Assembly: GCA_041675205.1 (NCBI GenBank)
Contig: JBAYUF010000001.1
Span: 148,863-212,862 of the forward strand
DNA: 64,000 nucleotides
Direction of reading: 5' to 3'
Origin: Patescibacteria group bacterium
GTDB taxonomy: Bacteria; Patescibacteriota; Patescibacteriia; GWA2-46-9
Positions 3,066 through 34,048 of the stretch are shown here, piece by piece. Position 1 is the stretch's first letter, and each line of letters starts with the position of its first letter. The position numbers were made by a program, and so were the translations under genes. Below the pieces are notes generated by a model that had not been told where the DNA came from, did not search any database, and worked only from the letters and a program-made list of their open reading frames with translations.

Positions 3066-3154
<89 letters not shown>

Positions 3155-25951: not shown

Positions 25952-26028
25952 GTTAGTTTTGGGGTCGAGGGGCGAACGTCGGTTGACGCTCGCCCCTCGC
26001 TTCGTTCGAACCGACTCGGTGTTTCCGC

Positions 26029-26397
26029 TTAGGCTGCCAGGGCTTGGCAGGAGAGCAGGAGATTGTACGGGTGTCGCTGTTTGTAGAGGTGCGCGGCAAC
26101 GTAGCTAGCCGCTTCTGCTGCAGGGGCTTTCACCCGAATCGTTTGTGTGTGTGCCTCTCCTTCATCGGAGAATACGAGCAGTACATCAAACGTCGGACGT
26201 GAAGGATCCACCTTCATTGTTGTCACCGCTACGTGTGCTTGAGCCGGAAGCTCGCACTCTGCGAGGAGCCAGAGCTCTGCTTCTGCATCGGCACCACCTG
26301 CGTTTTCGGCATAGACCAGGTAGGTGTGGCCGACTGTCACTTGTCCTTGGCACCTGGCCGAGGCCACAACTATGAATTGTTGGTATATTCTGTCCAT
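26029..26397 (-). CDS. hypothetical protein (GC-rich)
   Basis: AAGGAGG-N7-ATG on the minus strand. Second gene of a two-gene GC-rich unit. Confidence 0.45.
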   Translation of the reverse strand: MDRIYQQFIVVASARCQGQVTVGHTYLVYAENAGGADAEAELWLLAECELPAQAHVAVTTMKVDPSRPTFDVLLVFSDEGEAHTQTIRVKAPAAEAASYVAAHLYKQRHPYNLLLSCQALAA

Positions 26398-26428
26398 CGC
26401 GTTGCCTCCTTTGGCGTTCGTCCGCAAG

Positions 26429-26695
26429 CTAGTCTAGCTGTCTTGCCGGTTCCATTTCTACGAACAGGTGCTCATGCCTCCCCATGAGTCGATTGTAACG
26501 CACTCGAGCGTTGCGTTCGGCATTCACGGCACTTACAGCCGTCGTTTGGAAGGTAATTGCCTTGCCCGCGTGGCGACATGGCTCTGTAACTTTCACCTCG
26601 AAGCGGTGTCTTTCTCGTTTGGCCTTTTCTGTGGCCGTGGTTGTAGTTGTTGCTGCCTTGAGCGGCAGCGTGAGTTGCAAAACTTGTGCTGCCAT
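26429..26695 (-). CDS. hypothetical small protein (GC-rich)
   Basis: AAGGAGG-N5-ATG on the minus strand. Lies 31 nt upstream of the next minus-strand gene. Confidence 0.4.
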   Translation of the reverse strand: MAAQVLQLTLPLKAATTTTTATEKAKRERHRFEVKVTEPCRHAGKAITFQTTAVSAVNAERNARVRYNRLMGRHEHLFVEMEPARQLD

Positions 26696-27101
26696 TGGTC
26701 CTCCTTCGGCACCCACGCCAAGTTGTCAAAGATACCGAAAACGTATTCCTTTTGCGGTTTGGTGGCAAGTGGTTGACGGAATGATTGGGAGAATAATAAT
26801 TGGGTTCAGTCCCATCAACCGATAGTGGTTGTCTCTAATCAGGAGGAACATTTTTTTCTACGAGTTTTGAATAATCTTACTTCATGTTGGATAAGACCGT
26901 TGGCTATTAGAAATCGCCAAAAAATCTAACCCGATGCGGGTGGGTAAGCTACTGGGGGCGTTGGTTTTGTTCGGAAGCCGAGGCCTTAGCTGCAGGTTGG
27001 CGGAAAGCAAAAAATTGTCCGTAGTAATTGATCTTTTTGCAGTTGTCTCTTTGAGTTAGTTGAGTTTTGCACATGAAACGGTATGGAGGTAAACTATCCA
27101 G

Positions 27102-27392
27102 ATGGACGATCAAAAGAAAGACGAAGGCACGGAGGGCAAGCTCATGTTTATTAAAGAAATCGCTAAATATTTTAGGGATTTTCTTGAGACAGATTTTTAT
27201 AAATATAAATTTCAAAAACGCGCCGGCCAGCTGAAAAATGAGGACGGTGTGCTTATGGGTTTCAATCTTCAAAAGTATCTATCGTTTAGGGCTTCAATAT
27301 CGCAGCTCGTTAACGCGGATTGTGATAAAAACTTTTTTAATAAACTGGAAAAAGTAGTTTATAAAACAAATGAGGGCTACTTTATTTTTTGA
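27102..27392 (+). CDS. small hypothetical protein, first ORF of the AT-rich defense-like cassette
   Basis: 96-aa AT-rich ORF ending about 24 nt before the OLD-family gene. Confidence 0.4.
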   Translation: MDDQKKDEGTEGKLMFIKEIAKYFRDFLETDFYKYKFQKRAGQLKNEDGVLMGFNLQKYLSFRASISQLVNADCDKNFFNKLEKVVYKTNEGYFIF

Positions 27393-27415
27393 GACTGCAT
27401 TCTGAATTAATTTTT

Positions 27416-29488
27416 ATGAAAATTAGATCAATAAAAATATCAAACATTCTAAGTTTTGAGTACAAAGATGATATTGACCTCTGTGAATCGATCGTTTTTA
27501 ATAAGAACGTTAATATTCTGATAGGTCCAAACGGAGTCGGGAAAAGTAATTTTTTGGAAATTATCAATCAAATTTTTAAAAGAATTTTATTTAAGCAGCC
27601 TGATTTCGATTTCGATACTATTTCAAAGCACGAGAACAATCCGGCCGATACTTCTTTGAATCAAACTTTGGATTTGACGCGTCGCTCCGTGAGTCATTTA
27701 AAAAAAAATAAATACAGTAGTTCAAAAATTAAAAAAATTAAAATAGAAATTCTGCTTAATGATAACGATGTTAGCAATTTGAAATTTATTCATTCAAATG
27801 CGGATAAGATAAATGATATTTTGAATAAATATTCACGTATAAAGCTAAATTTTGATGGTAAAATTATTTTTGACGACATTGAAAAGATCAAGTCCCTCAC
27901 CCTTATTTTGGAAGATAAAGAGGATACTAACATTTTTTCTATTTCAGAGTTGTCCGGTAGCACGGCTGGAACTTTTATAACAAAATATTTCGAGTATTTC
28001 GAGTTTGTTCAGAAAATTATTTTCATTGCAAATGAACGAGAAGGTGAAAGTTGGTCAGAGCTTAAAACAAGCTTCGTTTTAATAGGTTGCTACCGTAACT
28101 ATAATAGTTTTTCTAACTCTTATAGTCTTAGTGGTTATCTTGTTAATGCCATCAGGGATGTTGAGAACAAACGAAAAGAAGAAAATACTAAGAGCGCCGA
28201 TGTTGCGGAACCACTAGTTTTCGAGATGGTAAAAAAGATTTTATCATATCGACATTCTCAGCTCCTTTTTTCAGAACAGTTAAACGCTGAAGGAGTATCA
28301 AAAAAAATAAAAGAGGAGCCGTTGCTGACGAATATTAACAATTTATTAAAGCAACTCCCTCTTCAATTAGAATTGAATATTGTAAAGAAGAATCCTCACG
28401 ATATCGTTCATCAAATTTTTTTTATTGACCTCAGGGATCAAAAGAGAATCGAAGTTGAAGAATTGAGCGCTGGACAAAAGAGTGTCCTGCATTTTTTCTT
28501 CAGCATATTTGGATACGATTTAAGTAATGGTCTGCTCATTATTGATGAACCGGAACTTCATCTACATCCACAAATTCAAGAGCAGTACATGTTGTTAATT
28601 GAAAAAGTAGCCCTCGATAATGACATGCAGTTTATTCTGGCGACTCATTCTCCAATTTTTGTATCACGAGAAACAATTAATAATGTCTTCAGATTTAGTA
28701 AGGCTACTCACTTCACGCACGTATCCCATCCTCCCATAGCAGCTTCTGACCAAGAATTGGTCAGAATATTAAATTATACTAATAGCTCAAAAATTTTCTT
28801 TTCTAAAAAAGTTGTACTTGTCGAAGGCGAGTCCGATGAATTTTTTTACCGAAGATTTTATGAGCACTTACAAAAGCAGAATAGAGGAGATGATAATATC
28901 GAATTTCTTGCAATAAAAGGGAAGGGCGCAAAGGAGCTATGGTTTGATTTTTTACAAAAATTTGACGTAATGACCTTCTTTATTGGCGACTGGGATAATA
29001 TTATTGAGTCAGGTCTGCTAAGTAATTCAGAGTTAGAGAAATATAAAAATAATTTTAGACAACAGGCCTTTAAGGGAATTGATAGTGGTGTTTTTTTGCA
29101 AAAAAACAGTAAGGATCGAATAATTTTATTAGAAAATTTGAAAAAATATCTCGAAAAAAATGACCCAAATCTCTTGTCTAGTTTGAGGGATCTTATTGAT
29201 TACTTAACGATAAGACACTTGCCCTGCAGAGAGATTGTTGAGTTTATAAATTTAAACGATCGATCAACTTTAGCCAGCCTCAATGTTCAGATAGAAAGTT
29301 TATATGCTCAGAATCGCTATTATCTTAAACGGGGCGAATTGGAAGATTATCTAGGATTACGAACGAAAAGCTTGCAAGATGTTATCTATTTCATTGAGAA
29401 TGATTTTAATTCCTGGTTAGCGAATACTTCCTTCAAATCGGAAGTTGAAGAGATTACTCAAATATTCTCTGACATTATTAGAAAATGA
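27416..29488 (+). CDS. OLD-family ATP-dependent nuclease: ABC-type ATPase fused to a C-terminal Toprim domain
   Basis: Walker A GPNGVGKSN. ABC signature LSAGQKS. Walker B LLIIDEPELHLHP. H-loop LATHSP. Toprim Glu in VVLVEGESDEF and DxD in FFIGDWDN. About 30% GC. Confidence 0.8.
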   Translation: MKIRSIKISNILSFEYKDDIDLCESIVFNKNVNILIGPNGVGKSNFLEIINQIFKRILFKQPDFDFDTISKHENNPADTSLNQTLDLTRRSVSHLKKNKYSSSKIKKIKIEILLNDNDVSNLKFIHSNADKINDILNKYSRIKLNFDGKIIFDDIEKIKSLTLILEDKEDTNIFSISELSGSTAGTFITKYFEYFEFVQKIIFIANEREGESWSELKTSFVLIGCYRNYNSFSNSYSLSGYLVNAIRDVENKRKEENTKSADVAEPLVFEMVKKILSYRHSQLLFSEQLNAEGVSKKIKEEPLLTNINNLLKQLPLQLELNIVKKNPHDIVHQIFFIDLRDQKRIEVEELSAGQKSVLHFFFSIFGYDLSNGLLIIDEPELHLHPQIQEQYMLLIEKVALDNDMQFILATHSPIFVSRETINNVFRFSKATHFTHVSHPPIAASDQELVRILNYTNSSKIFFSKKVVLVEGESDEFFYRRFYEHLQKQNRGDDNIEFLAIKGKGAKELWFDFLQKFDVMTFFIGDWDNIIESGLLSNSELEKYKNNFRQQAFKGIDSGVFLQKNSKDRIILLENLKKYLEKNDPNLLSSLRDLIDYLTIRHLPCREIVEFINLNDRSTLASLNVQIESLYAQNRYYLKRGELEDYLGLRTKSLQDVIYFIENDFNSWLANTSFKSEVEEITQIFSDIIRK

Positions 29489-30603
29489 CGCACGATCCAT
29501 TAGAACAAATTGAGAAAAATTTGCGCGTTCTTGTGGATGATATATTGACTGATAAATTCGGACCTCTGTGGACTGAAGTTGCCGGTTTGGGTCCCGATTG
29601 GATCAAAAAGATGCAAGAAAAAACTATTGCAGATAAGACAGCGCAAGGAAACACCATCCTGTATGAAAAATTAATTTCATATGCTGAATTTGGAGATTTA
29701 ACTAAGCTTTTGCAGTTACACCAAATACTATTCAAGCCAGTTTTTTCTAAATGGGAGAAGTACTTCACCCTTATTAAGATCGCGGAAGAATTAAGAAATA
29801 CCGTAAAGCATCATCGCGATATAAGCCCCGCTCAAGAGAAATTGCTATTCGGTATTGCCGGTGAGATTGATGATGCTATAAATCTGTGGAGAATTGGTGC
29901 AAGATTAAATATAAAAAGGCTGGTATTTGGCTTTTCTGATTATATACCAACACAACATAAATCTGACGAAGAAATATTAAGAGAATCAGAAAGAAGCATT
30001 CTCGATTGGCAAAAACTGTTTTTAAATTTCTTTGAGGCCAAGGGGCTTGATATAAGTAGAATAGAAAATGTTTATAATTCTCTTAATTTAAAAATAAAGG
30101 GTTATGGTCTTTATCTTCAAACCTCGACCTCTTCACAGCCCAATCCAAACTCTGAAATAAATGGTGTCGAATGTAAGCATATATATACTCAATTGTTGCG
30201 CAACGAAGGTTCTCATATTTCTTTGGATGAATTATTTGCATTTATAAAGAAACAGTATTGGAATATTTCATATGATTTAAGAGATACTATAAATATAGAT
30301 GCCCTTAAAGAATGGTCTAGTGATAGTGCTGGTCGAGAACCTTCTAGTTCAAGCAGATCAAATGGAGTTTACACGGGCATAGAGTATGCTTTGCTGCATG
30401 GAAAAATAAGGATCGGAGCGACAAATTATTCAGACGAAGAAGGCCACGGTGGTAGGTTGCAGATATTCAATGAACAAAATAGCCATGGATGGTTTCCGCA
30501 CAAGATTATAACCCCTCAGCATCTTTTGGGTTTTATTACGGGCAGTGTTACACCCCGATCTATACAATATCTTTTACTCATGTCGTGCAATACCAACGAA
30601 TAA
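29485..30603 (+). CDS. HEPN-domain protein (Swt1-like R-x4-H) with uncharacterised C-terminal domain
   Basis: ATGA overlap with the upstream stop. N-terminal domain carries IAEELRNTVKHHRD (R-x4-H-H), the Swt1-type HEPN signature. Confidence 0.55.
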   Translation: MTHDPLEQIEKNLRVLVDDILTDKFGPLWTEVAGLGPDWIKKMQEKTIADKTAQGNTILYEKLISYAEFGDLTKLLQLHQILFKPVFSKWEKYFTLIKIAEELRNTVKHHRDISPAQEKLLFGIAGEIDDAINLWRIGARLNIKRLVFGFSDYIPTQHKSDEEILRESERSILDWQKLFLNFFEAKGLDISRIENVYNSLNLKIKGYGLYLQTSTSSQPNPNSEINGVECKHIYTQLLRNEGSHISLDELFAFIKKQYWNISYDLRDTINIDALKEWSSDSAGREPSSSSRSNGVYTGIEYALLHGKIRIGATNYSDEEGHGGRLQIFNEQNSHGWFPHKIITPQHLLGFITGSVTPRSIQYLLLMSCNTNE

Positions 30604-30679
30604 CCAATCCAAATTTATTGAGCGAAGTATAATTAATAAGCGTAACAATTTTACCCAAGTCATTTATGGTTAGTGAATT

Positions 30680-30787
30680 AGGACTTTTGTATATTTTTGT
30701 TCGTACTTATTTACATTCTTCAATTTCTCATTTTGGCGATTCATCCAGCGTTGCCTTGATTGACCACGAGGCACGAGAAGGGTACGG
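30680..30787 (+). repeat. ~110-nt intergenic element, copy A (second copy at 33940-34048)
   Basis: AGGACTTTTGTATATTTTTGTTCGTACTT...TTCTTCAATTTCTC...GGCGATTC...GCACGAGAAGGGT, about 70% identical to copy B. Confidence 0.55.
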
Positions 30788-30814
30788 TTACAATGTGATT
30801 TATACGATTTCATT

Positions 30815-33244
30815 ATGAAAAGAACATTCATCAGCGCCTGTTTAGCAGTTTTCATCATTCTTCCTTTTGGGGCGAGTGCTGCAACGCTTTCAAAAAATCC
30901 ATTCTCAGTGATTGATCAGACCGTTTCCATTTATGCGAGTTCGGGGGAGAATTTTGATACACTATCGTCATACAGTTCCGTTTGCTTCAACGATACTAAT
31001 CATTGTTTCCTTAGCACCAGCTTTAGTAGTTCAAGCGTAAAATGGTTATGGACTTCCACCAAAATAACTATCCCCATTCCTTCGGATCTCAACCCAATCG
31101 GGGACATTATCGTCTACAACCAAGGCTCGCGGCAGGTCTGCTATGGGGGAGACTATTGTTATAGCGAAACCTATGCACAAGAGAAGGCTCGAATTAGTTA
31201 TCAGATTCAGCCCGTGATCGTTTCAGTGTCTCCGTTAGTGCCCAAGCAAAATGAACAGGTCGTGATTAATGGTTACGGTTTTGGGCCCACATCGGGTCAG
31301 GTGCTCTTCGATGATTCGGGTGCCTCGGTTATCAACTGGAGCGACCGATCAATTACGGTCATCGCATCGCAGGGGGTAGGCGTGGCAAAAAAAATAAAGG
31401 TAAGCAGTTCAGCCGGAACAAGCACAACCTTCGGACTTTTTGAATATTTAGACCAGATATCTGCACCCCAAGCCTGGCAGACTGTGGGCACTGCCCCCGT
31501 AGTAGTGGCCGTCATCGATGATGGTGTCTATATTAATCATCCGGATCTTTCACCCTATATATGGCGTAATCCTGGTGAGGTGGTGGGTAACGGAATCGAT
31601 GACGATCATAATGGGTACATCGATGATGTGTTGGGCTATAATTTTGTCGATAATTCATCCCGAGTGGATCCTAAGGGCAGTCACGGTACGTTGGTCGCAA
31701 GCACGGTTTTGGCGACCACCGGTCGCGGGGTGATGGGCAATGCTTCAAAGATGAACATTCGCATTATGCCTGTTATCGTGAGTGATGTTCAAGGAAACTC
31801 TTCCTTTCAATCTCTGGCGGCAGGCATTCGCTACGCTGCTGACAATGGTGCGGATGTAATAAATATCAGTCTGGGTAGTCGCGGCACCATTGGTTACACC
31901 GATTCTCTGACGCCCGCAATTCAATATGCTTTTGATCACGGGAAGGTAGTGGTGGTTGCGGGAGGGAACGGGGATTTGCAAGCTAATAATGGTGAGAACC
32001 TTAATTTTACACCCCAGAGCCCAGTCTGCAACAACAATGGGTCACAATTGGCGCTTGGTGTAGGGGCGCTCGATAATACAGACGTGCAAACAAATGGTAG
32101 GGTACGCACGGGTTGGTCAAACCATGGCAGTAATTGTATCAATATTTCTGCGCCCGGAGTGGGTATAGTTGGAGCATCAGTTCCCAGTTTTAATAGCGGT
32201 TCATTTTACAGCCAGGAGGACGGGACTTCTTATTCGAGCCCCATCGTTGCGGGTGTAGCCGCTATGGTGAAAGGGACGACTCCCAAAATGAAAAACTGGG
32301 AAATAATGAATCGTGTTATTGGAACGGCTGATAATATCGATAATGTTAATCTTGGTTTTGCGGGTCAGATCGGAGGGAGAGTAAACGCATACAAAGCTAT
32401 TGGCAATCAATCCACCTCTGGCTCCATTGTGTCTGTCAGCCCTAACGAAGCATTTGCAGGTACTCCGGTGGTAGTTACCATCAAAAATTTTTCTTCGGAT
32501 TATACGCTGCGTATTTCCGGGCAAGGGACACCAGGTGGTAGTACGACTGACTCTCCAATTTCTTGGTCGAGTATCGCACCATTGGCGGCCGATAAGTTCT
32601 CGGTAGTTATTCCAGCAAGCCTGCCGACGGGGACGTATTCTTTCCGTCTAGTTTCTCCGACTGGTAATGAATATGGTACGGGTGAAAATAGTCTACATGT
32701 CACAAATGACGGTCGTTCTGTTCCTAAAAATCCGAGCCCCGAACAAAGCATTCCAACAACGCCTTCAAGTCAGGTGACAGCACCGACTCAAGGCACTCCT
32801 GTGGTAACGCCTAGCACTAAGTCGTTATTGGCCAGGCTGCTAGGTTATATTGTCCTCCAGGTGCAGCAGCATGGGGAAGCGTGGTATATACATCCAGACA
32901 CAGGATTGCGCTACTATATGCAGGATGGTTCAGTGGCTTATCAAATGATGCGGTCATTTGGCCTAGGAATTACAGATACTGATTTGGGCAAAATTCCGAC
33001 TGTGGGTAGTGAGCAAGCGATGAAAGATAGCACGAGCGTTTGTAACGCTAACTCAACCGCTAATAAATTAAAAGGTAAAATTCTTCTGCAGGTTCAACAG
33101 CATGGCGAAGCTTGGTATGTCCACCCAGATAAGTGTCGTAGAATATATATGAAAGATGGGGGTGTTGCTTATCAGATAATGCGATTCTTGAGCCTGGGCA
33201 TCACGAATACTGATTTGACTAAGATACCTGAGGGGAGTTTATGA
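30815..33244 (+). CDS. secreted subtilisin-like serine protease (S8) with Ig/IPT-like domains and two C-terminal GEAWY modules
   Basis: Signal peptide. Catalytic Asp VAVIDDGVYINHPD, His GSHGTLVAST, Ser GTSYSSPIVAG. C-terminal repeats ...QQHGEAWYIHP.../...QQHGEAWYVHP... Confidence 0.85.
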   Translation: MKRTFISACLAVFIILPFGASAATLSKNPFSVIDQTVSIYASSGENFDTLSSYSSVCFNDTNHCFLSTSFSSSSVKWLWTSTKITIPIPSDLNPIGDIIVYNQGSRQVCYGGDYCYSETYAQEKARISYQIQPVIVSVSPLVPKQNEQVVINGYGFGPTSGQVLFDDSGASVINWSDRSITVIASQGVGVAKKIKVSSSAGTSTTFGLFEYLDQISAPQAWQTVGTAPVVVAVIDDGVYINHPDLSPYIWRNPGEVVGNGIDDDHNGYIDDVLGYNFVDNSSRVDPKGSHGTLVASTVLATTGRGVMGNASKMNIRIMPVIVSDVQGNSSFQSLAAGIRYAADNGADVINISLGSRGTIGYTDSLTPAIQYAFDHGKVVVVAGGNGDLQANNGENLNFTPQSPVCNNNGSQLALGVGALDNTDVQTNGRVRTGWSNHGSNCINISAPGVGIVGASVPSFNSGSFYSQEDGTSYSSPIVAGVAAMVKGTTPKMKNWEIMNRVIGTADNIDNVNLGFAGQIGGRVNAYKAIGNQSTSGSIVSVSPNEAFAGTPVVVTIKNFSSDYTLRISGQGTPGGSTTDSPISWSSIAPLAADKFSVVIPASLPTGTYSFRLVSPTGNEYGTGENSLHVTNDGRSVPKNPSPEQSIPTTPSSQVTAPTQGTPVVTPSTKSLLARLLGYIVLQVQQHGEAWYIHPDTGLRYYMQDGSVAYQMMRSFGLGITDTDLGKIPTVGSEQAMKDSTSVCNANSTANKLKGKILLQVQQHGEAWYVHPDKCRRIYMKDGGVAYQIMRFLSLGITNTDLTKIPEGSL

Positions 33245-33762
33245 ATAAATTAATCTTACCAGCAGCCATACTACTATCCAGTATTATTTTGGGCGGATTT
33301 TATTACGCTGCTGAAATTAATGAGCAGAGTTCAATTGAAAGACAACAAGAAGTAACAATTAAAAAAGAAAAAAGCATTGAAGAAACTAGACCGCAATTAC
33401 AACAGAAAGTTGAGGATCAGGAGGAAATTATGAACGAAAAACCAGTCGATATTTACCCGCAAAATAATAATGACCAGATTCTCATTAACTATAGATTGGA
33501 TGTCCAAAATGGAGATGATATGAGAAATAGTTTATTAGAGACTGCCTTTAATTCGCCAGAACAAATGTGTCCCAGTGTCATTGCCACTATGGCTACACGG
33601 CAACATGCCTATTATTATGTTTTAGACGATATTGCCAAACTTACATTAAAGTATGGTCAATATCGTGGATCGATTAACTATATAAAAAACAATCTTGATG
33701 GTTTGGATAATGTAATTTCAATTGTTAAAGATCAATGTGCTTCGTTGGGCTACTCATTCTAA
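33241..33762 (+). CDS. hypothetical membrane-anchored/secreted protein
   Basis: ATGA overlap with the protease stop. N-terminal hydrophobic helix. 173 aa. Confidence 0.45.
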   Translation: MNKLILPAAILLSSIILGGFYYAAEINEQSSIERQQEVTIKKEKSIEETRPQLQQKVEDQEEIMNEKPVDIYPQNNNDQILINYRLDVQNGDDMRNSLLETAFNSPEQMCPSVIATMATRQHAYYYVLDDIAKLTLKYGQYRGSINYIKNNLDGLDNVISIVKDQCASLGYSF

Positions 33763-33939
33763 GGTAAGCAAATTAAACCTATTATATTTGAATAATAAGT
33801 TTGGGTCTCATATACCGTTAATCATCACCTCCCCAGTTGCTGCCCAACTGCTGCCCAAAAAGTGACTAAAGTGGATTAGCTTTGACTATGTCTGAGTACG
33901 TTTGAGACAAACCATAAAGTAGATTTCAATCAATGAATC

Positions 33940-34048
33940 AGGACGTTTATTTATTTTTGTTCGCACTTTTTTGTTTTCTTCAATTTCTCTCTGGGGCGAT
34001 TCGATTCCTACCGCCCCTGGCAAGTTGAGCTAGCACGAGAAGCGTTGT
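33940..34048 (+). repeat. ~110-nt intergenic element, copy B
   Basis: AGGACGTTTATTTATTTTTGTTCGCACTT...TTCTTCAATTTCTC...GGGGCGATTC...GCACGAGAAGCGT. It contains the hairpin GGGGCG-N13-CGCCCC. Confidence 0.55.

Follow-up and report, generated by a model that had tools for sequence, protein, structure and literature searches.

We analysed a 64,000-nucleotide stretch of a Patescibacteria metagenome-assembled genome (MAG; contig JBAYUF010000001.1, positions 148,863 to 212,862), referred to here as the window, which carries a low-GC islet of three co-directional open reading frames (ORFs). These are a small ORF, orf1; an ORF ending at position 29488 that encodes an OLD-family ATPase-nuclease; and a 372-aa ORF that encodes a HEPN-domain protein, here called protein 3 (Table 1). 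The islet is probably best read as two self-sufficient single-gene defence modules, the OLD gene and the protein 3 gene, that were acquired together, are transcribed together and act independently of one another, an interpretation that we hold with moderate confidence. It draws on the domain identities, motif conservation and fold of the encoded proteins, on the foreign composition of the islet, and on the finding that neither gene has a conserved partner among its sampled relatives.

The islet is set apart from its surroundings by base composition. GC content is 0.29-0.38 at positions 27000-31000 against 0.475 for the whole window, and GC at third codon positions (GC3) is 0.317 in the OLD gene, 0.314 in the protein 3 gene and 0.381 in orf1, compared with 0.44-0.48 in the flanking host genes. 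A previous model-made note on this DNA (the original prediction) had described a low-GC block of three tightly packed ORFs at 27102-30603 in a higher-GC chromosome; the composition agrees, and the ORF list confirms the coordinates. Horizontal acquisition of the islet is probable on these compositional grounds. No significant direct or inverted repeats were detected in its flanks, and no integrase or tRNA marks its borders. Rfam finds just two tRNAs in the window, at 3066 and 51777, both distant from the islet. The surrounding genes are of housekeeping or membrane type, including those for DoxX, a baeRF-like protein and an S8 peptidase, and no further defence genes were found among the window neighbours close to the islet.

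Judged from its sequence, the OLD protein belongs to its family at a level far above chance. Pfam assigns AAA_15 (2.9e-23), AAA_21 (3.7e-20) and OLD-like_TOPRIM (1.2e-12), all above gathering scores; the last of these scores 48.6 bits against a cut-off of 23.2 and spans residues 462-528 of the scanned sequence. Both defining features of the family are present, namely an N-terminal ABC ATPase with Walker A, signature, Walker B and H-loop motifs, and, at the C-terminus, a Toprim domain that carries a catalytic Glu and a DxD motif. The motifs and domains on which the original prediction had based its OLD assignment, including every motif it quoted, are thus supported by the profile searches against AAA_15, AAA_21 and OLD-like TOPRIM, and an alignment of 27 relatives, numbered one higher than the protein itself, shows little or no variation at the key residues. 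One detail required correction. The first ATG lies at 27416 rather than 27413, giving 690 aa instead of the 691 aa given previously and matching the length of the deposited MFA7286194.1; with an alternative in-frame start upstream, a TTG at 27389, the protein would have 699 aa. The top PADLOC model is the P2-type 'Old' (7.4e-33), and the Toprim and C-terminal region alone matches this model through to the end. Among solved structures, the nearest is the Thermus scotoductus class 1 OLD, 6p74, which matches over ~180 residues (E=2.8e-9). An insert of ~280 aa in the ATPase matches no PADLOC model. More than 562 OLD homologs were found at 30-46% identity, mostly in Patescibacteria and Thaumarchaeota.

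Protein 3 carries the sequence ELRNTVKHH at residues 102-110. In a 37-sequence alignment of the family, R104 and H109 are nearly invariant, as are E10, W29, G123, G126 and E127, and R104, N105, K108, H109, H110 and R111 are invariant among the 13 closest relatives. Both hallmarks of the HEPN superfamily, the conserved Rx4-6H motif and the all-alpha helical-bundle fold, are present, the latter in an AlphaFold2 model of protein 3 with pLDDT 93.3 and pTM 0.79. The match of protein 3 itself to the Pfam family HEPN_Swt1 (PF18731) reaches 17.6 bits (E=0.0047), short of the gathering threshold of 27.5. Because 17 of the 37 relatives match HEPN_Swt1 at E<=0.01, the best of them at 7.3e-7, we consider the HEPN assignment sound on sequence grounds and an affinity of this domain to Swt1/Abi2 likely. 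Of the Swt1-type HEPN proposed in the original prediction, then, the motif and the fold hold, and the subtype label is backed by a score below threshold. DUF4145, which had also been suggested, gives no match to protein 3.

The protein 3 family is rare and previously undescribed. An exhaustive HMMER search of 1.84 billion representatives returned 432 matches at E<=1e-3, of which ~35 are full length (~370-400 aa); most others are ~260-280 aa long and have only the N-terminal ~140 residues in common with protein 3. A word-indexed homolog search recovered protein 3 itself and one relative, on a contig cut 11 nt upstream; repeating the indexed search with the 37-sequence alignment gave only five proteins, and an alignment of closer relatives found nothing in genome contigs. 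The protein 3 profile gave nothing meaningful against PDB sequences. A single match to the N-terminal domain in viral contigs was judged spurious, and three loci (L017, L018 and L019) were dropped as their matches run antisense to a methyltransferase gene.

The remaining ~230 residues of protein 3 form a domain that has no match in Pfam or PADLOC, and a Foldseek search with the whole two-domain model found nothing significant in PDB or BFVD. This fits the large uncharacterised domain that had been noted after the HEPN region. Within it, only Y258 and H339 are nearly invariant in the 37-sequence alignment. In one family member, P0148, the C-terminal domain is retained and an HNH domain takes the place of the HEPN domain (HNH_3, 3e-5; ZorE-like in PADLOC). 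As far as these sequences can tell, the family architecture is that of a swappable nuclease effector joined to a constant C-terminal module, and the module is probably regulatory or sensory. The exchange of HNH for HEPN thus points to an effector-plus-regulator design within one polypeptide.

The gene neighbourhoods of protein 3 relatives argue against a dedicated pairing with OLD. Neither an OLD gene nor an orf1 homolog occurs in any of 11 loci that encode full-length relatives. These comprise nine metagenome loci (L008-L016; 29-47% identity) and two loci, L020 and L021, from P0239, which have the same neighbouring genes. Contig ends cut L015 and L016, so that about nine of the 11 are informative. 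In L020, an ATPase gene with AAA_15/AAA_21 and no detected Toprim lies ~4.6 kb off, on the opposite strand and past integrase genes. Several relatives look solitary, and others adjoin integrases or transposases, a Ppl-like ATPase with a serine recombinase, a PDC-S37/Hhe-like helicase-restriction endonuclease (REase), or a REase-ARP gene with DUF6946. An all-versus-all comparison of flanking ORFs revealed no recurrent partner. Protein 3 relatives stand by themselves, in the surroundings of mobile elements or defence islands. At L010:2794-5622, the relative lies downstream of a 942-aa protein, the C-terminus of which matches PADLOC Ppl (1.2e-17) and AAA_21; two small unannotated ORFs lie between the two genes and a serine recombinase gene comes next, in a setting that resembles a defence island.

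The same picture emerges from the OLD side. A protein 3-like ORF lies beside none of 12 close full-length OLD relatives (L002, L003, L005, L006, L024-L027 and L046-L049) and in none of 16 more distant OLD/AAA_15-type loci. Hidden Markov models (HMMs) of the whole protein 3 family, of the HEPN domain and of the C-terminal domain were used in this comparison, and their sole match was the window itself. Taken with the 0 of 11 on the protein 3 side, these counts (0 of 12 and 0 of 16) leave the dedicated OLD plus HEPN cassette of the original prediction without support. Several OLD relatives stand alone among housekeeping genes (L024-L027, L049, and L046, the last near purE/purK genes and a purE-like fragment), and another adjoins a type I HsdM gene (L002). 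At L047:2890-6064, a relative with 37% identity follows a gene for a 350-aa SLFN_AlbA_2 (Schlafen-like) protein across a 58-nt gap, with an integrase adjoining. No neighbour family recurs in the OLD flanks except a small XRE-type helix-turn-helix gene in two loci.

At L048:2223-8555, an OLD relative with 40% identity sits between N6_N4_Mtase and ResIII helicase genes in an operon that resembles type III restriction-modification (RM). It overlaps its upstream neighbour by ATGA and its downstream neighbour by 8 nt, and its GC3 is 0.281 against 0.436 and 0.424 in the flanking genes. By sequence, this gene looks like an embedded defence gene. The setting, the overlaps and the foreign GC3 together therefore suggest that the OLD clade is a mobile solo gene, translationally coupled to whatever adjoins it. 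A 1004-aa protein annotated as HsdR, P0114, combines OLD-like_TOPRIM and AAA_15 with HSDR_N, SWI2_SNF2 and ResIII, and is either a genuine fusion of OLD with HsdR or the product of two genes merged in gene calling. Taken with the HsdM neighbour at L002, this protein suggests a frequent association of the OLD clade with RM systems.

These comparisons bear directly on the reading that competes most closely with ours, that of a genuine two-component system. Here OLD would sense infection and activate the HEPN protein, possibly via its C-terminal domain, and DNA nicking together with RNA cleavage would lead to abortive infection. We regard this as unlikely. The ATGA overlap at 29485-29488, by which the OLD stop meets the protein 3 start and which had been seen in the original prediction as well, speaks for such a system, and protein 3 could use its C-terminal domain for docking. 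The overlap weighs little, because the same 4-nt arrangement occurs in three of the 45 same-strand gene pairs in the window, and the OLD relative at L048 overlaps unrelated genes too. Spacing of <=20 nt is seen in 18 of the 45 pairs, and 4-nt overlaps are generic in this compact genome. In contrast to PARIS- or Septu-type pairs, in which the partner is an ATPase only, the window OLD has an intact nuclease of its own, and both families occur solo, in addition to the absence of each from the other's sampled loci.

Several points nonetheless weigh against two independent modules. The 4-nt overlap and the nearly equal, foreign GC3 of the two genes (0.317 for OLD, 0.314 for protein 3) mean that they arrived jointly and are surely co-expressed, a circumstance that a two-component system would share. 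All sampled relatives are distant, with OLD at <=46% and protein 3 at <=41% identity, and the pairing could be conserved in the pair's own close lineage, outside the sampled relatives. Elsewhere, OLD-type ABC ATPases share operons with nucleases of varied kinds: HNH, REase, PIN or Toprim (PMC12839542). One could extend these points to a sixth OLD class, in which a nuclease-competent OLD licenses an RNase through the latter's C-terminal domain for a dual attack on DNA and RNA, conserved only in a Patescibacteria lineage yet to be sampled; we give this proposal a similarly low chance, if anything a slightly lower one. An operon of OLD with a Swt1-type HEPN was not found described in the 2013 HEPN census or in the recent literature searched.

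The small upstream ORF raises the question of a third partner. For orf1, no significant match was found in Pfam, PADLOC, NCBIfam or PHROGs, and tblastn against phages gave none. It forms a singleton cluster among ~15 billion proteins, and its homologs are absent from every related locus examined on both the OLD and the protein 3 side. The suggestion that this 96-aa ORF is a third component or modulator is unsupported, since it is an orphan singleton without homolog or family match. The same evidence bears on a toxin-antitoxin (TA)-like locus, in which orf1 or OLD would neutralise a HEPN toxin and the locus would mainly stabilise the islet. HEPN proteins often serve as the toxins of type II TA pairs (PMC3710099), and the tight packing and the small upstream ORF would suit such an arrangement. 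Set against this are the lack of an MNT or other known antitoxin domain, the orphan status of orf1 and its absence from all relatives' loci, and the occurrence of protein 3 relatives alone, with no conserved small neighbour; regulation is therefore more likely to occur in cis, via the C-terminal domain. We consider a TA-like locus the least probable of the explanations weighed here.

Comparison with known systems places the two proteins separately. OLD proteins have been divided into classes (PMC10568477, PMC12796447), and the window OLD is most likely, on its sequence and neighbourhoods, of class 1 type. Like P2 Old, Thermus OLD (6P74) and the Vc OLD of Vibrio cholerae, it has no conserved partner, and its best PADLOC model and nearest structure are both from this class. 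The 12 close relatives have no neighbours or unrelated ones, and the HEPN pairing of the window is not conserved, as expected of class 1. The relationship is distant, however: the window protein has 690 aa against 528 in the 6p74 chain and contains the large ATPase insert, its clade is mostly from Patescibacteria and Thaumarchaeota, and in the window a HEPN gene follows with a 4-nt overlap. The neighbourhood features of classes 2-5 are lacking, which upholds the earlier view that the locus is not Gabija, PARIS or a retron. For class 2 (Gabija), no helicase ORF, be it UvrD/PcrA/Rep-like (GajB) or other, lies within ~5 kb; for class 3 (retron I-B, with a reverse transcriptase and an msr/msd ncRNA), no reverse transcriptase occurs among the neighbours, and Rfam gives only the two distant tRNAs. 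The split of class 4 (PARIS) into an ATPase, AriA, and a DUF4435 Toprim protein, AriB, is absent, as ATPase and Toprim are fused in the window protein and the AriB match is marginal (0.0087). Class 5 (Cran1) is defined by a conserved operon with a membrane-protein gene, by conservation in Sulfolobales and by essentiality (PMC12796447), whereas the window gene lies in a foreign islet of a bacterial MAG.

Protein 3 differs from the single-protein HEPN abortive-infection effectors of the Abi2/AbiD/AbiF/Swt1 clade, and from other defence proteins that join HEPN to a variable domain, such as HEC-08, in scoring below the HEPN_Swt1 gathering threshold, in its unmatched 230-aa C-terminal domain and in the small size of its family (~35 full-length clusters). 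The PADLOC candidate PDC-M34B matches its HEPN domain (6.3e-9) and 36 of the 37 family members (best 1.4e-18). The best model, PDLC04592, has 192 positions, and its positions 67-173 align only with residues 8-115 of protein 3, so that this B model is without the additional 230-aa domain. In the Payne et al. 2024 preprint, PDC-M34 appears as an unvalidated guilt-by-embedding candidate of two genes, FAM_01148>>FAM_01657, with an A family (FAM_01148) that differs from the common ABC ATPase family FAM_00005. No PDC-M34A match was found for orf1 or for OLD fragments covering residues 61-340, 455-690 and 529-690. Each gene has a PADLOC match of its own, the OLD protein to 'Old' and the HEPN domain to PDC-M34B, a candidate rather than a named system. 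On large plasmids of Streptomyces and Rhodococcus (L044 and L045), proteins of ~272-279 aa, all annotated as hypothetical, have only the HEPN domain in common with protein 3, at 26-31% identity; they may correspond to PDC-M34B proper. The plasmid neighbourhoods of such short HEPN-only relatives contain hypothetical proteins only.

Multigene arrangements offer further points of reference. In pairs of an OLD-type ABC ATPase with a nuclease acting in trans (PARIS AriA/AriB, Septu PtuA/PtuB, HEC-01 to HEC-03 and the HNH, REase and PIN dyads from the Aravind laboratory), the ATPase gene adjoins a nuclease gene of another superfamily, as it does here. Their pairing, however, is conserved across many taxa and their ATPase usually has no nuclease of its own, whereas the window ATPase has an intact Toprim and the pairing recurs in no sampled relative. 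There is also a likeness to Old_Tin at the P2 hotspot and to genes embedded in RM operons, as in L048, where distinct defence genes lie side by side, or one within the operon of another, without mechanistic dependence; the window islet differs in being isolated among housekeeping genes, with no recognised hotspot or RM operon. A HEPN-MNT TA system is not indicated, as no nucleotidyltransferase domain was found in orf1 or the neighbours.

A role outside defence must also be weighed, with one or both genes serving a housekeeping function in nucleic-acid metabolism or persisting as decaying passengers. The archaeal class 5 OLD Cran1 acts in the cell cycle, so OLD roles vary (PMC12796447), and the housekeeping neighbours of the islet, with no other defence genes close by, would suit such a role. 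The foreign composition tells against it, as do the intact catalytic motifs and ORFs of both genes and the patchy, sporadic occurrence of both families next to mobile-element, RM or defence-island genes; the conserved membrane-protein partner of the class 5 kind is likewise missing. We deem a non-defence role very improbable.

If the two genes are independent defence modules, as we favour, their modes of action can be sketched by analogy. We infer the anti-phage role, the substrates, the triggers and the independence of action from characterised relatives. Class 1 OLD genes are singly sufficient for defence (PMC12392090, PMC12445682); Vc OLD nicks DNA (PMC12392090) and P2 Old cuts tRNA anticodon stems (PMC12445682). 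If the window protein works as P2 Old, Vc OLD and Thermus OLD do, its ABC ATPase would act as a sensor or licensing domain, and ATP binding and hydrolysis would activate the fused Toprim nuclease. This nuclease may then nick DNA or cut tRNA and thereby block phage replication or abort the infection. Protein 3, like other HEPN effectors, probably dimerises to form a composite HEPN active site. Its ~230-aa C-terminal domain would probably hold the HEPN nuclease off until a phage cue arrives, a form of gating resembling that of other effectors that join HEPN to a variable domain.

Table 1. Features of the islet, in window coordinates
Feature	Position	Strand	Remarks
Low-GC islet	27000..30814		GC compared with the window, GC3 with the flanking genes; contains orf1, the OLD gene and the protein 3 gene
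orf1, 96 aa	27102..27392	+	NCBI MFA7286193.1, hypothetical protein
OLD-family ABC ATPase + Toprim nuclease, 690 aa, class-1-like	27416..29488	+	MFA7286194.1, NCBI "AAA family ATPase"
Walker A / P-loop GPNGVGKSN, aa 37-45	27524..27550	+	G37, N39, G42, K43, S44, N45 invariant
ABC signature LSAGQ, aa 350-354	28463..28477	+	S351, G353 invariant
Walker B LLIIDEPE, aa 373-380	28532..28555	+	D377, E378, P379, E380 invariant
H-loop ATHSP, aa 409-413	28640..28654	+	H411, S412 invariant
Toprim catalytic Glu motif VVLVEGESDEF, aa 466-476	28811..28843	+	E470, G471, D474 invariant
Toprim DxD motif GDWDN, aa 524-528	28985..28999	+	D525, D527, N528 nearly invariant
ATGA stop/start overlap, OLD/protein 3	29485..29488	+	read from the sequence; same kind at two other window gene pairs
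Protein 3, 372 aa, HEPN N-terminal + alpha/beta C-terminal domain	29485..30603	+	MFA7286195.1, NCBI hypothetical protein
HEPN domain, aa ~1-140, Swt1/Abi2-like	29485..29904	+	
Rx4H motif, R104-N-T-V-K-H109	29794..29811	+	nearly invariant in 37 relatives
C-terminal alpha/beta domain, aa ~141-372	29905..30600	+	proposed sensor or regulatory module; high-confidence prediction

The surroundings of the islet contain several other features. About 1.1 kb upstream, a 168-aa protein encoded at 25445-25951 matches baeRF_family3, a bacterial archaeo-eukaryotic release-factor-like family, below threshold (E=1.3e-5, 26 bits against a cut-off of 31.5); the GC of its gene is host-like, and any tie to the nearby RNase/tRNase-type genes is speculative. 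ORFs of 132 aa and 95 aa on the minus strand at 26029-26716 adjoin the left edge of the islet. The 132-aa ORF has no Pfam match, and the region holds numerous overlapping ORFs on both strands and no Rfam match; positions 26000-26499 are unusually rich in GC (0.56). On the other side, 30815-33244 encodes an 809-aa S8 subtilase with a TIG domain, at the C-terminal end of which a ~50-aa repeat (…LQVQQHGEAWY[IV]HPD…GITxTDLxKIP) occurs twice in tandem and may serve in anchoring or binding at the cell surface. A second low-GC patch (0.35-0.38) at 33000-34000 includes a 173-aa ORF at 33241-33762 that has no Pfam match and shares 4 nt with the S8 peptidase gene at that gene's stop.

If the pair were dedicated after all, it would constitute a further OLD class, one partnered by an RNase, and the comparative evidence argues against this. 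The OLD clade to which the window gene belongs behaves as a mobile solo module that lands in other operons, its codons overlapping theirs. This cautions against inferring functional coupling from tight gene overlap, especially in the compact genomes of the Candidate Phyla Radiation (CPR). The rare family of protein 3, in which a HEPN domain (or HNH in one member) is joined to an unmatched C-terminal domain, is a clean candidate for a new phage-sensing domain, because its fold is predicted with high confidence and its effector is swappable. Finally, the islet would add an example of defence genes in Patescibacteria, a group whose immunity has been little studied.

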